36,023 bases of DNA from a bacterium (GCA_021817655.1 JAKAGE010000001.1:1-36023); one strand, 5' to 3'. Shown: positions 7,472 through 10,089, counted from the first letter of the stretch. A program made the numbers and translations. Notes: a model not told the origin generated them from the sequence alone.

Positions 7472-8053
7472 TTATGAATTCGGATTGACAAGCCACCGTT
7501 CGTACACTTCGACGATCATTGCGATGACGCTCCGCAGATCATGCGTTCCGGTGTCGATGACCATGTCGTACTGGGAAATATCGGTAAAATCGACCCCATA
7601 CAGGTCCCGATACCGCTTCTTTTCGCTCTCGATGCGCGCGAGCGTCTTCTGGATGATCTCCTCGAGCGAAGCCGGACCCTGGCCCATCCGCTCGCCGTTG
7701 CTCACCTGGGCGAATATCCGCCGCGCAGCGACGGTCGGATCGAGACGCAAAAACACCCTGAAGGAATCGGGGATCCAGTGAAACGCCATGCGGGAATCGA
7801 TGACGATGTTTTCCTTCCCGCTGCCAAGCGCCCGGAGCATCGCGTCAACGCCCTCGTCGATCGCCTTCTGCTGCTCCGCAACGATGTTCATCTCCTCGAT
7901 CGATACGCCCCGCTCCGCCGCCATCTTCCGGAAAAGATCCCCCGACGAAAAATGTTCGTATCCGAGCGCTGATGCCACCCCCGCCGCAGCGCTCGACTTC
8001 CCGCTCCCCGGCAATCCTCCGATCGTGATGATATGTTTCCGTTCCATTGCCAT
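7472..8053 (-). CDS. cytidylate kinase-like P-loop NMP kinase (archaeal-type cmk family), 193 aa
   Basis: P-loop GGLPGSGKSS, SSGDLFR NMP-binding motif, and YRDLYGVDFTD tail. It lies directly downstream of adk. Confidence 0.7.
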   Translation of the reverse strand: MAMERKHIITIGGLPGSGKSSAAAGVASALGYEHFSSGDLFRKMAAERGVSIEEMNIVAEQQKAIDEGVDAMLRALGSGKENIVIDSRMAFHWIPDSFRVFLRLDPTVAARRIFAQVSNGERMGQGPASLEEIIQKTLARIESEKKRYRDLYGVDFTDISQYDMVIDTGTHDLRSVIAMIVEVYERWLVNPNS

Positions 8054-8059
8054 TGTCGT

Positions 8060-8632
8060 TCACCGGCCGAGGGCCCCTTCGATCGCCGCGGCGACCGCAT
8101 CGGGCGCGGGCGCGCCGTCGATCGTGATGAATCTCGTATGGTCCTTCAGATATTCCATCGCCGCATGGATCTCGTCGTCAAAATCCCGGAAGCGCTGATC
8201 GATCGCCTCGGGCGTGTCGTCCGCGCGCCCTTCGCGCTCGGCGCGCAAAAGCAGCCGCCGCTTGCACTCATCACGCGAAAGATCGATATAGAGCGTCGCC
8301 ATCCGTCCTTCGTGCCCCCGCTCCCGCAACCACCCGATCATGAACTCGCTCTGCCGGATCCGCCGCGGCACGCCGTCGAAAATGATGCCGCGCCCCTCCG
8401 GAACGAGGGGCAGCTTCTCCTTCAGGATCTCGAGAATAAGATCGTCGTCCAGCAGTTTCCCGTGATCGATGGCTTTGATCCTCCCTGCAAGGGGCCCGCC
8501 TTCGGCGAGGATCGCCCGGAGCGTCCCGCCCATCTCCCAGAATAAAAAATCGAGCTTTTCGGCAAGCCGTTTTCCCTGCGTGCCCTTGCCCGATCCCTGC
8601 GGCCCCGCGACGAAGATGATGTCGTATTCCAT
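8060..8632 (-). CDS. adk: adenylate kinase, short form, about 190 aa
   Basis: MEYDIIFVAGPQGSGKGTQ P-loop and the DGVPRR motif. The alternative ATG at 8644 overlaps the predicted -10, so 8632 is preferred. Confidence 0.9.
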   Translation of the reverse strand: MEYDIIFVAGPQGSGKGTQGKRLAEKLDFLFWEMGGTLRAILAEGGPLAGRIKAIDHGKLLDDDLILEILKEKLPLVPEGRGIIFDGVPRRIRQSEFMIGWLRERGHEGRMATLYIDLSRDECKRRLLLRAEREGRADDTPEAIDQRFRDFDDEIHAAMEYLKDHTRFITIDGAPAPDAVAAAIEGALGR

Positions 8633-8642
8633 GAATGCCTCC

Positions 8643-8670
8643 ATTGTAGCAGAATATTTCCACGATTCAA
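8643..8670 (-). promoter_or_regulatory. sigma70-like promoter for adk
   Basis: On the minus strand: TTGAAT (8665-8670), 16 nt, TACAAT (8643-8648). Two AATATTTCC direct repeats are nearby. Confidence 0.5.
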
Positions 8671-8697
8671 AATATTTCCGTTGCGATACGTGAACAC

Positions 8698-8827
8698 GAT
8701 AGAATAGCCATCCCCTCCATCCGCCTGAGAGGCCTCGGAGGCCGCGAAGACGGCCGAAAACGAAACGCCCGCGCAGCAGCGCGGGACGTCGTAATCTCGA
8801 GCGGATGGAGGGGATGGCTATTCTATC
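8698..8827. repeat. 130-nt structured palindromic element (family member A)
   Basis: A perfect 27-bp inverted repeat, GATAGAATAGCCATCCCCTCCATCCGC (8698-8724) with its reverse complement (8801-8827). It encloses three GC-rich hairpins. The right arm overlaps the secY stop codon. Confidence 0.85.
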
Positions 8828-10089
8828 CCCTCGTATTCCCTGACGGTGAGCTGCGAATCCACTGCCCGCATCGTCTGGAGCGCGACCGCAACGACGATCA
8901 GAAGCGCGGTGCCGCTGATCGTGACGACCGAAAGGCCGGTCACCGACTGTACGATGATCGGAAGGATCGCGATGATCCCGAGGAACGCGGCACCGAAAAG
9001 CGTGATGCGATTCACGAGAGAGCCGAAATATTTTTCCGTGTTCTCGCCCGGACGGATGCCCGGGACGAAACCGCCGCTCCGCTGGAGATTTTTCGCGATC
9101 TCTTCCGGGTTGAATGTGATGGCCGTATAGAAGTACGTAAAGATGAATACGAGCAGGAAGAAGGTGATCCCGTAATACAGCTGGTTCGAGATGAATCCCT
9201 GCGCGAAATTATTGATCCGGAGCCCCCACGAGGCCGAGAATACCGCAACGATCTGCGCCAGGAACTGCGGGAAAAGCAGGACCGAAATGGCAAAGATGAG
9301 CGGGATCATTCCCGCGGAATTCACCTTGAGCGGGAGATAGCTCTGCGCGCCGCCATACATCTTGTTGCCGCGGACCCGACGGGCATATGCGACGGGGATC
9401 TTCCGCTCGCCTTCGTTCAGATATACCACGCCCGCAATGAGCGCCGCGCCGGCGACGATGAATCCAAGATACGACGTGAGAAGCTGAGGGGTGTAGGACG
9501 CGATCGCGACGCCGACGGCGCGGGGCAGGCCGGCGACGATGCCCGCCAAGATGATGAGCGAAACGCCATCTCCGACTTTCTGCTCGCTGATGAGCTCGCC
9601 GAGCCACAGCGCGATCATCGAACCGCACGTGATCACGATAACGTTCCGGACCATGCTGAACGCATCGGGACGCGGAATGACGCCCTGCGAAATGAGCAGG
9701 GTAAGGAACCCGTACGACTGGATGAAGGCGAACGGCACGGTGAGAAGGCGGGAATATTGATTGAACTTCGCCTGGCCCCGGGTCCCCTCCTCGTAGTACA
9801 TTTCCTTCATCTTCGGGAAGATGATCGTCATGAGCTGCATGACGATGGTGGACGTGATATACGGGCCCACGCCCAACATGACGACCGAAAGATTTGCAAG
9901 GCCGCCGCCGGAGAAAAAGTTAAGGAACCCGAGGAACTGGTTCGTGCTGAAATAATTCTGAAGCGCCTGGGCGTTCACTCCCGGTATCGGGATCGCCGCA
10001 AGCACGCGGTACGCCGCCAAAAGCCCCAGGACGATCAAGACCTTGTTGCGGACCTCCTTCACCCGGAATACCTGCAGCAACCGTTCCAT
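8818..10089 (-). CDS. secY: preprotein translocase subunit SecY, 423 aa
   Basis: Ten-TM profile, GVNAQALQ and GVGPYITSTIVMQL motifs, and its position after rplO. Confidence 0.95.
   Translation of the reverse strand: MERLLQVFRVKEVRNKVLIVLGLLAAYRVLAAIPIPGVNAQALQNYFSTNQFLGFLNFFSGGGLANLSVVMLGVGPYITSTIVMQLMTIIFPKMKEMYYEEGTRGQAKFNQYSRLLTVPFAFIQSYGFLTLLISQGVIPRPDAFSMVRNVIVITCGSMIALWLGELISEQKVGDGVSLIILAGIVAGLPRAVGVAIASYTPQLLTSYLGFIVAGAALIAGVVYLNEGERKIPVAYARRVRGNKMYGGAQSYLPLKVNSAGMIPLIFAISVLLFPQFLAQIVAVFSASWGLRINNFAQGFISNQLYYGITFFLLVFIFTYFYTAITFNPEEIAKNLQRSGGFVPGIRPGENTEKYFGSLVNRITLFGAAFLGIIAILPIIVQSVTGLSVVTISGTALLIVVAVALQTMRAVDSQLTVREYEGIE

Follow-up and report, generated by a model that had tools for sequence, protein, structure and literature searches.

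The REP, BIME and REPIN sequences of Proteobacteria, which are associated with RAYT proteins, are multi-copy extragenic palindromes situated just after the 3' ends of genes; their arms evolve in concert, and a role in stabilising or terminating the mRNA in which they fold has been ascribed to them. Non-coding repeats of 100-150 bp that form long hairpins at gene ends are known as the Correia elements of Neisseria, the ERIC/IRU elements of enterobacteria and the RUP and BOX elements of streptococci, all of which carry family-wide terminal inverted repeats and target-site duplications. RNase III cleavage and effects on mRNA stability have been reported for the Correia and ERIC elements. Integron attC sites are imperfect palindromes of 57-141 bp at gene 3' ends that act as folded single strands, in one orientation, and have conserved R and L box ends around a variable centre. 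Intrinsic and 'hairpin cluster' terminators, too, are GC-rich hairpins lying right after stop codons or tRNA ends, with the next promoter behind (PMC8355165). A mutational process, quasipalindrome correction according to the Ripley model, renders the arms of inverted repeats perfect, mirrors substitutions and indels between them, extends them into native flanks and occasionally inverts the spacer (PMC5941160, PMC7202029, PMC8604942 and PMC13100816).

Here we analyse a fold-back element lying between secY and adk in a stretch of 36,023 nt of bacterial DNA, hereafter called the window (GCA_021817655.1 JAKAGE010000001.1:1-36023), and find that it is one copy of a large, lineage-restricted family of non-coding repeats, the Y-core family. 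REP stems are short and follow a genome-wide consensus, whereas Y-core stems are copy-specific and 20-47 bp long, the conserved part being the apex, a 65-nt three-way junction; no shared stem consensus was found, RAYT is missing from the genomes and Y1 occurs in 1/23 of them, where it is IS200-like, the extragenic downstream position being the REP feature that is present (55/98 copies). Unlike the Correia, ERIC, RUP and BOX elements, Y-core repeats have termini unique to each copy and target-site duplications in 0/98. Among the features of MITEs, presence/absence polymorphism was observed, and conserved termini matching an insertion sequence were not found in a search covering the Y1 and reverse transcriptase families. 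Since the defining features of REP/REPIN and MITE families were looked for and found wanting, we place Y-core outside both, as a kind of palindromic repeat previously undescribed in CPR/Parcubacteria, for which a full-text search of the literature returned no description of such elements. The arrangement is also opposite to that of attC sites, for the centre is conserved and the ends vary; the R''/L'' and L'/R' boxes were not found, and no cassette array is present at the element. Intrinsic terminators differ in their U-tract, which is missing after the closing stem of Y-core elements, whose T-run is found in the inner stem, on its 5' side. These genomes have canonical terminators as well, in some cases ahead of a Y-core copy. 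Quasipalindrome correction comes closest with regard to the arms, which grow outward into native flanks and show spacer inversion in this family as well, but it leaves the conserved core, the copy number and the fixed polarity unexplained.

The Fold-Back Element Downstream of secY

The features of the locus are collected in table 1. The two arms of the element, of which one reads GATAGAATAGCCATCCCCTCCATCCGC, are exact reverse complements and form a perfect 27-bp stem around 76 nt, just as the original prediction had it, and no inverted-repeat match like it arose in 100 shuffles; the pairing runs on imperfectly to 33 nt (94%). RNA folding of the 146-nt region 8690-8835 gave -97 kcal/mol for the minus (gene-sense) strand and -92 for the plus strand, with z around -10 for both, and DNA folding of the 130-nt element gave -54.1 and -54.0 kcal/mol on the two strands (z of -10.6 and -11.9). 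With fold energy and repeat unmatched by shuffles, and with 291 relatives of the core (see below), the early view that this is no chance palindrome holds. Three further proposals proved accurate: the right arm contains the two final codons of secY, its stop and one more base; the element lies between secY and a separate promoter for adk; and it does not appear to be a standard intrinsic terminator, there being no U-run after the closing stem. Inside the element, hairpin B is followed on the gene-sense (minus) strand by CGTTTCGTTT (CGUUUCGUUU), which gives it a terminator-like look.

Table 1. Features of the secY-adk region and related features of the window (positions counted from its first nucleotide)
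Feature	Position	Strand	Remarks
Whole fold-back element, a copy of the Y-core repeat	8698-8827	R1 sense is window +, antisense to secY	Match to covariance model R1 at 8712-8813 (+), 85.6 bits
Distal arm, adk side	8698-8724		Outer 10 nt (8698-8707, GATAGAATAG) equal the last 10 nt of secY, inverted
Conserved core	8725-8800	+	Three-way junction on a short inner stem, CTGAGA/TCTCGA, that closes it
Core hairpin A	8740-8755	+	GGCCG / GAAG-type loop / CGGCC; loop CGAAG nearly invariant
Core hairpin B	8765-8789	+	ACG-CCCGCGC / AGCA / GCGCGGG-A-CGT
Proximal arm	8801-8827		8818-8827 is native secY: one base of a Gly codon, Ile, Glu and the TAG stop
secY	8818-10089	-	Pfam SecY, 4.3e-97; stop TAG at 8818-8820
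Promoter-like site for adk	8643-8670	-	TTGAAT-16-TACAAT, TG-extended; 28 nt beyond the distal arm
adk	8060-8644	-	Pfam ADK
Cytidylate-kinase-like P-loop kinase gene	7472-8053	-	Right after adk; weak adk-like match (27% identity) in all relatives
Second family copy	30977-31096	Same polarity as the secY copy	fusA stop (31090-31092) and two codons lie in the right arm

Of the three inner hairpins that had been proposed, GGCCG-CGAAGA-CGGCC and CCCGCGC-AGCA-GCGCGGG (8768-8785) are real and conserved in the family with covariation, whereas GGCC-TCGGA-GGCC found less support: it overlaps hairpin A and is missing from both the covariance-supported consensus of the family and the RNA minimum-free-energy folds, even if the gene-sense DNA fold of the secY element does show a GGCC/GGCC stem at this site. 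The second copy in the window has a 25-bp stem with two T.G wobbles and adjoins fusA, a gene that was confirmed by Pfam.

A Lineage-Restricted Repeat Family

When the whole element was used as a BLAST query against its own genome (G000, 718 kb in 75 contigs), only its own locus was found, the sequence of the arms being unique there. In genomes of the same genus, the inner ~68 nt found matches of 75-89% by BLAST, often several times per genome, each core match being enclosed by a long stem of unrelated sequence that was perfect or nearly so in most cases. The covariance model R1, which we built from 11 copies, then yielded 291 full-length matches in 22/23 genomes of the genus, with 0 to 31 per genome; G000 has three of them, including the secY and fusA copies of the window. 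Outside the genus, 3/5 of the genomes sampled among other genera of its family have R1 matches; farther afield in the order, matches are weak and rare. The suspicion that the element was a dispersed repeat was thus vindicated by covariance-model search of the genome and its relatives; the companion suggestion, that uniqueness in the genome would reduce it to a chance palindrome or a fossil insertion, would have led astray, for only the arms are unique, whereas the core is present in many copies.

The host genus belongs to Paceibacterota/Parcubacteria, the relatives of its SecY being found in metagenome-assembled genomes (MAGs) of Candidatus Paceibacterota, Parcubacteria and Minisyncoccia, with isolate names that suggest surveys of soil and peat. 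The window has no match in Rfam at gathering thresholds, the best permissive one being to the Leu leader (19 bits against a cut-off of 50), and a distant blastn search of a phage collection found no match to the element. Copies of the family are met at the ends of contigs, where they break MAG assemblies.

Anatomy and Covariation

Anatomy and context were evaluated on 98 distinct copies. The apex of the family is borne by a semi-conserved inner stem of ~10 bp (5'-CTTTTGAGGG...CCCTCAAAAG-3'), the only part of the stem that is shared across copies; a GGA bulge of 3 nt and the loop CGAAG mark hairpin A, the loop CAGCAG marks hairpin B, and the strands of the junction are purine-rich. K-turns, GNRA and UNCG loops and the loops of stable DNA mini-hairpins were sought by eye in the core, and none fits. 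The pyrimidine tract following hairpin B is mixed C/U in most subfamilies and U-rich only in some, and 6/55 gene-end copies have a terminator-like score inside the element.

Covariation supports the paired structure. Across the 98 copies, 98.3% of the cells are paired, a share that falls to 63% in shuffles and to 40-48% with the partner column slid; every modelled pair (29/29) changes on both sides, and in hairpin A swaps among GC, CG and AU occur at every pair. Complete closing stems vary from 7 to 47 bp in length (median 28.5 bp), are perfect in 38/98 copies and contain 2726 Watson-Crick pairs against 93 others (39 G.T, 23 A.C and 31 of other kinds). Beyond the inner stem the termini are specific to each copy, identity between outer arms being 0.34 for copies of one genome and 0.29 between genomes.

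Position and Polarity

Gene context was established with a self-trained codon model, aragorn and spot checks with Pfam. In 55/98 copies the right side, in the orientation of R1, lies on the 3' end of a coding sequence or tRNA. For the 33 copies at minus-strand coding sequences the offsets range from -23 to +18 nt and are mostly between -16 and 0, so that the stop codon falls within the arm; for the 22 at minus-strand tRNAs they range from -9 to +4. One further copy, on contig C52 of G000, has the same side next to what we take by eye to be the 3' end of an rRNA gene. Pfam confirmed the upstream housekeeping genes tuf, rpsI, ssb, greA, dnaB, hisS, lepA and rnj, as well as fusA and secY for the copies in the window. 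Further neighbours are, as read by eye, presumably uvrA, hsp20, rpsA, pilB and ftsQ; for the uvrA candidate, Pfam yields only generic ABC and SMC domains. The polarity toward gene 3' ends is fixed: the opposite one is seen in a single copy (L059), whose orthologue L046 has the usual polarity, which indicates that the core was inverted inside its palindrome.

In another 16/98 copies the right side falls on the -35 box of a promoter serving a downstream gene with a short leader or none; some of these follow immediately upon a canonical terminator, where little transcription is expected. Motifs resembling the 3' half of a tRNA (GGATTCGAAC...), devoid of a full tRNA body, occur in the left flanks of L053, L090, L092 and L038 and at 30675-30912 of the window, lying 50-70 nt from several promoter-side copies. 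The far flank contains the promoter of the next gene, as at adk, in 11/33 copies at coding-sequence ends. A canonical terminator lies within 120 nt behind only 4/55 gene-end copies; in G000, 48/383 genes possess one no farther than 100 nt from the stop. Looking for target-site duplication, we found direct repeats of 4-6 nt at the borders of the palindrome in 0/98 copies, and those of 2-3 nt at about chance level. In five near-complete genomes, the gene-sense strand is co-oriented with the inferred leading strand of replication in 53 copies versus 20, a bias to be expected from gene-linked orientation by itself.

The SecY End Is Native

The C-terminus of SecY reads ...REYEGIE* in 18/18 genomes of the genus with a readable secY-adk junction, whether a Y-core element, another hairpin or nothing follows, and also in most of 41 wider relatives; the secY site is filled by the element in 7/18. 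The proposal that an insertion had remodelled the SecY C-terminus therefore fails on comparison with relatives lacking the element, which have the same end. Because this end is native across relatives, the proximal side must be the source and the distal arm the copy. Indeed, the synonymous and stop-codon differences among orthologous secY genes reappear in the distal arm of the same locus: where the gene ends in gatagaatag (G000) the distal arm is CTATTCTATC (variant pair GATAGAATAG/CTATTCTATC), with catagaataa (G019) it is TTATTCTATG (pair CATAGAATAA/TTATTCTATG), with atcgaataa (G001) it is TTATTCGAT (pair ATCGAATAA/TTATTCGAT) and with ggtatcgaataa (G008) it is TTATTCGATACC (pair GGTATCGAATAA/TTATTCGATACC). 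As the suspected remodelling of SecY illustrates, the arms of such elements can mislead the annotation of gene ends.

In four other genomes (G014, G015, G011 and G006, at loci L152, L157, L155 and L154) hairpins of other families occupy the same spot after secY, one of them with an 18-19-bp stem, GGCATCTCTTTTTCGGAC, and a loop of 17-21 nt. More distant Paceibacterota (L163, L166-L168 and L171) have post-secY palindromes with unrelated cores of 94-136 nt, most of which also mirror the region of the secY stop. On the other side of the junction, adk of G001 is split by a frameshift (L079/L080), and the contigs of G015 and G013 (L077 and L078) end within adk.

Evolution of Arms and Core

The arms and the core of orthologous copies change at very different rates. 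Arm divergence is 0.37 at the dnaB site, 0.41 at that of a rodZ-like gene and 0.44 at gpmI, against divergences of 0.38, 0.49 and 0.42, respectively, at 4-fold degenerate sites; unpaired core bases differ by only 0-8% in 4/7 orthologous pairs. Identity of orthologous cores reaches 0.97-1.0, whereas paralogous cores within a genome have a mean of ~0.68, so that homogenisation between loci does not explain the conservation of the core, which is under purifying selection where it sits. The arms diverge about neutrally and yet stay complementary: over 12 orthologous pairs, 144 arm changes are compensated and 12 single (a few pairs may be off register, inflating the compensated count), and changes in arm length are mirrored as well, for example a 1-nt indel in L099/L139. 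A near-neutral rate together with only ~3% mismatches cannot arise from second, compensating point mutations that have to be awaited; it requires a process that resolves mismatches fast in either direction, and template switching does so. We therefore infer that template switching preserves the stem and lengthens it; this process is known to perfect, conserve and expand inverted repeats and to be capable of inverting their spacers (PMC5941160, PMC8604942 and PMC13100816). Spacer inversion has been seen once in the family, in L059 compared with L046. The family would thus be an unusually clean natural case of concerted evolution of inverted repeats, in which the arms change at an approximately neutral rate, remain paired and grow into their flanks.

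Occupancy of gene ends turns over. Both the ftsQ and the secY sites show presence/absence polymorphism at orthologous positions. G009 and most of the genus have no element at the end of ftsQ, the convergent genes overlapping there; G019 and G008 had the site filled independently, with unrelated arms, and the distal arm of G008 mirrors 18 nt of ftsQ. No donor for the arm at ftsQ of G019 was found within 3 mismatches of 23 nt in five genomes, a search in which older donors would have drifted beyond reach. In other species the same gene ends bear cores of other subfamilies, long hairpins devoid of a core or cores of an altogether different kind, as at pilB in G009 and at secY in G021, L163, L166-168 and L171. 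Downstream of pilB/gspE in G019 (L084:1201-2194) there is a low-GC insert of ~1 kb, absent from the sister genome G009, which contains a 237-aa ORF resembling class II aminoacyl-tRNA synthetases (weak match to PF00152) and is flanked by two Y-core copies in opposite orientation, in the manner of a cassette.

Candidate Partners

Several enzymes were considered as possible partners of the family. The Y1 transposase PF01797 occurs in G009 only, with 9 IS200-like copies, and is absent from 21 other element-bearing genomes that were searched; RAYT or Y1 transposase is thereby ruled out as mobiliser. The nine Y1 loci (e.g., C15:9300-9662) represent an expansion in a single species, in which Y-core copies are few (7 versus 26 in the sister G019) and some are decaying. 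Reverse transcriptases of the RVT_1 family are found in 15/23 genomes, mostly as ORFs of 320-405 aa, and are unsupported as partners, being absent from three genomes with 16-17 copies. SbcD_C was found in 0/5 genomes, a result to be read with the low sensitivity that a control showed for this family.

Function and Origin of the Elements

How did a nearly invariant core come to be enclosed by stems that differ in every copy? The explanation towards which we lean is that the core is a selected module marking the end of transcription units in genomes that seem to lack Rho, while template switching at the DNA level keeps the stem perfect and lengthens it. The element consists of two layers. One is a module of ~85 nt, formed by the semi-conserved inner stem of ~10 bp and the three-way junction of ~65 nt with its two GC hairpins, the loops and junction bases of which are near-invariant, under purifying selection in place. 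The other is the copy-specific perfect stem of ~15-35 further bp, the sequence of which drifts at an approximately neutral rate while intrastrand template switching, that is quasipalindrome correction, would keep it complementary and make it grow outward. Since the flank on the gene side is constrained, the far arm would become its inverted copy, comprising here the last 10 nt of secY with the stop codon. The module is placed in one fixed orientation right after the 3' ends of protein, tRNA and presumably rRNA genes and before the next promoter. Folded in the secY transcript, the element would signal the 3' end of this transcription unit, perhaps as a hairpin roadblock or terminator, perhaps by holding off 3' exonucleases, perhaps through cleavage by RNase III (an enzyme present in these genomes) that uncouples secY from adk; a factor would then recognise the conserved core. 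We infer this function at the RNA level more weakly than the action of template switching; it is suggested by the apparent lack of Rho, the RNA-binding domain of which was found in 0/23 genomes of the genus, and of a canonical terminator behind the secY copy. A conserved and orientation-specific module flush with the 3' ends of housekeeping and tRNA genes offers a testable candidate for a lineage-specific 3'-end signal in CPR/Patescibacteria.

Some observations go against the reading as a 3'-end signal. In 89/98 copies it is the R1-sense strand, the reverse complement of the transcript of the upstream gene, that folds better as RNA, by 4-5 kcal/mol (97/98 for the core alone), and on this strand G.U pairs outnumber A.C pairs by 49 to 25 (p about 0.005). 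G.U pairs are moreover rare (~1.7%), unlike in helices shaped by RNA-level selection alone; the U-tract is absent after the element and internal tracts are U-rich only in some subfamilies; and 16/98 copies are on the promoter side, some of them behind canonical terminators. Against the explanation as a whole we also count the sequence of the inner arm, which is not mirrored and so is left unexplained by the copying of flanks, the independent filling of the ftsQ site with unrelated arms and the failure to find a partner protein.

The main rival to a selected end marker is that the elements are selfish or neutral fold-back DNA, a non-canonical MITE without host function, which inserts near gene 3' ends and has its palindrome perfected afterwards by template switching, position and polarity reflecting insertion preference and the tolerance of sites. 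The promoter-side copies, some of which sit behind a terminator and ahead of a promoter in DNA that is probably not transcribed, and the turnover of occupants speak for such an origin: the family is multi-copy and lineage-restricted, with 0 to 31 copies between sister species; the same empty site has been filled independently; the same gene ends have varied core subfamilies, coreless hairpins and unrelated cores; copies break assemblies at contig ends and flank the low-GC gene cassette of G019; and the stems are almost purely Watson-Crick. Yet an immobile relic should decay, whereas the unpaired core bases of orthologues differ by 0-8% compared with 30-49% at neighbouring 4-fold sites and in the arms of the same elements. 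Arms are never shared by two copies of one genome, so that there is no sign of recent transposition, target-site duplications are absent and no transposase tracks the family (Y1 being confined to G009 and RVT_1 absent from three genomes with 16-17 copies). We consider this origin possible, if rather doubtful. A bolder reading, which we hold a little more tentatively still, takes the Y-core as the recognition module of a new factor-dependent and orientation-specific system of 3'-end formation in Rho-less Paceibacteria, by termination or processing, that serves mRNA, tRNA and rRNA genes alike and spreads to new gene ends; akin to it would be a self-propagating element of a new kind that uses snap-back DNA synthesis to enter transcription units at their 3' ends and derives its terminal repeats from the target.

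The near absence of wobble pairs, and the equal folding of both DNA strands of the secY copy, would also suit a structural or protein-binding site acting at the DNA level, namely a Y-shaped cruciform or single-strand hairpin at unit boundaries with a role in supercoiling, nucleoid organisation or replication. The overlap of promoter-side copies with -35 boxes, the co-orientation with replication (53 versus 20 copies) and the density of perfect inverted repeats in CPR phyla, the highest reported (PMC13155455), agree with such a site, which we nevertheless find unlikely, for the strict polarity of 55 to 1 toward gene 3' ends, tRNAs included, points to transcription, the replication bias is expected from gene-linked orientation alone and no binding protein is known. 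Spacers of 60-76 nt, moreover, disfavour the extrusion of cruciforms. The better fold of the R1-sense strand (89/98, core 97/98) and its excess of G.U over A.C pairs (49 to 25) might instead reflect an independent small or antisense RNA made from the plus strand of the window, convergent with secY. This is less likely again, since a sigma-70-like promoter directed into the element was found in only 5/98 left flanks (six sites), none of them at the secY copy, where the adk promoter lies in the left flank and fires the other way, and Rfam holds no matching family. A MITE-like insertion that remodelled SecY, or a chance or fossil palindrome, might have been surmised from the arm overlapping the last two codons and stop of secY and from the uniqueness of the arms in the genome; it is hardly credible, and indeed refuted by the 291 copies of the family and the native end of SecY, which is identical in relatives lacking the element, while shuffles never reach the fold energy or the repeat. 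Nor can a perfect stem be a fossil where 4-fold sites differ by 30-49% between species.

Palindrome Growth Beyond the Y-Core Family

Perfect stems of at least 16 bp number 23 in G000 against 0 after shuffling, and they include a second apex family and canonical terminators extended over apparent stop codons. The extended terminators imply that the growth of palindromes into gene ends is not confined to the Y-core family; such growth into native flanks appears to be a general property of these genomes, with the Y-core as one of several apex modules. A published survey puts the CPR phyla first for the density of perfect inverted repeats (PMC13155455), an extreme that may owe something to the concerted evolution of arms.

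Long perfect palindromes of the second apex family in G000 (C39:8052-8141, C72:3281-3365 and C15:5968-6031) have stems of 22-35 bp with a small conserved apex of a different kind (..CTCGTTTCTTCACGGGGCC..) and the same T-rich inner stem. The extended terminators (C41:4185-4224, C55:59-94, C14:5056-5095 and C64:2791-2825 of the same genome) are canonical bidirectional ones grown to perfect palindromes of 16-18 bp, and their outer ends have TAA or TAG triplets that resemble the upstream stop codon, which makes them, as judged from sequence alone, candidates for the same mirroring of gene ends.
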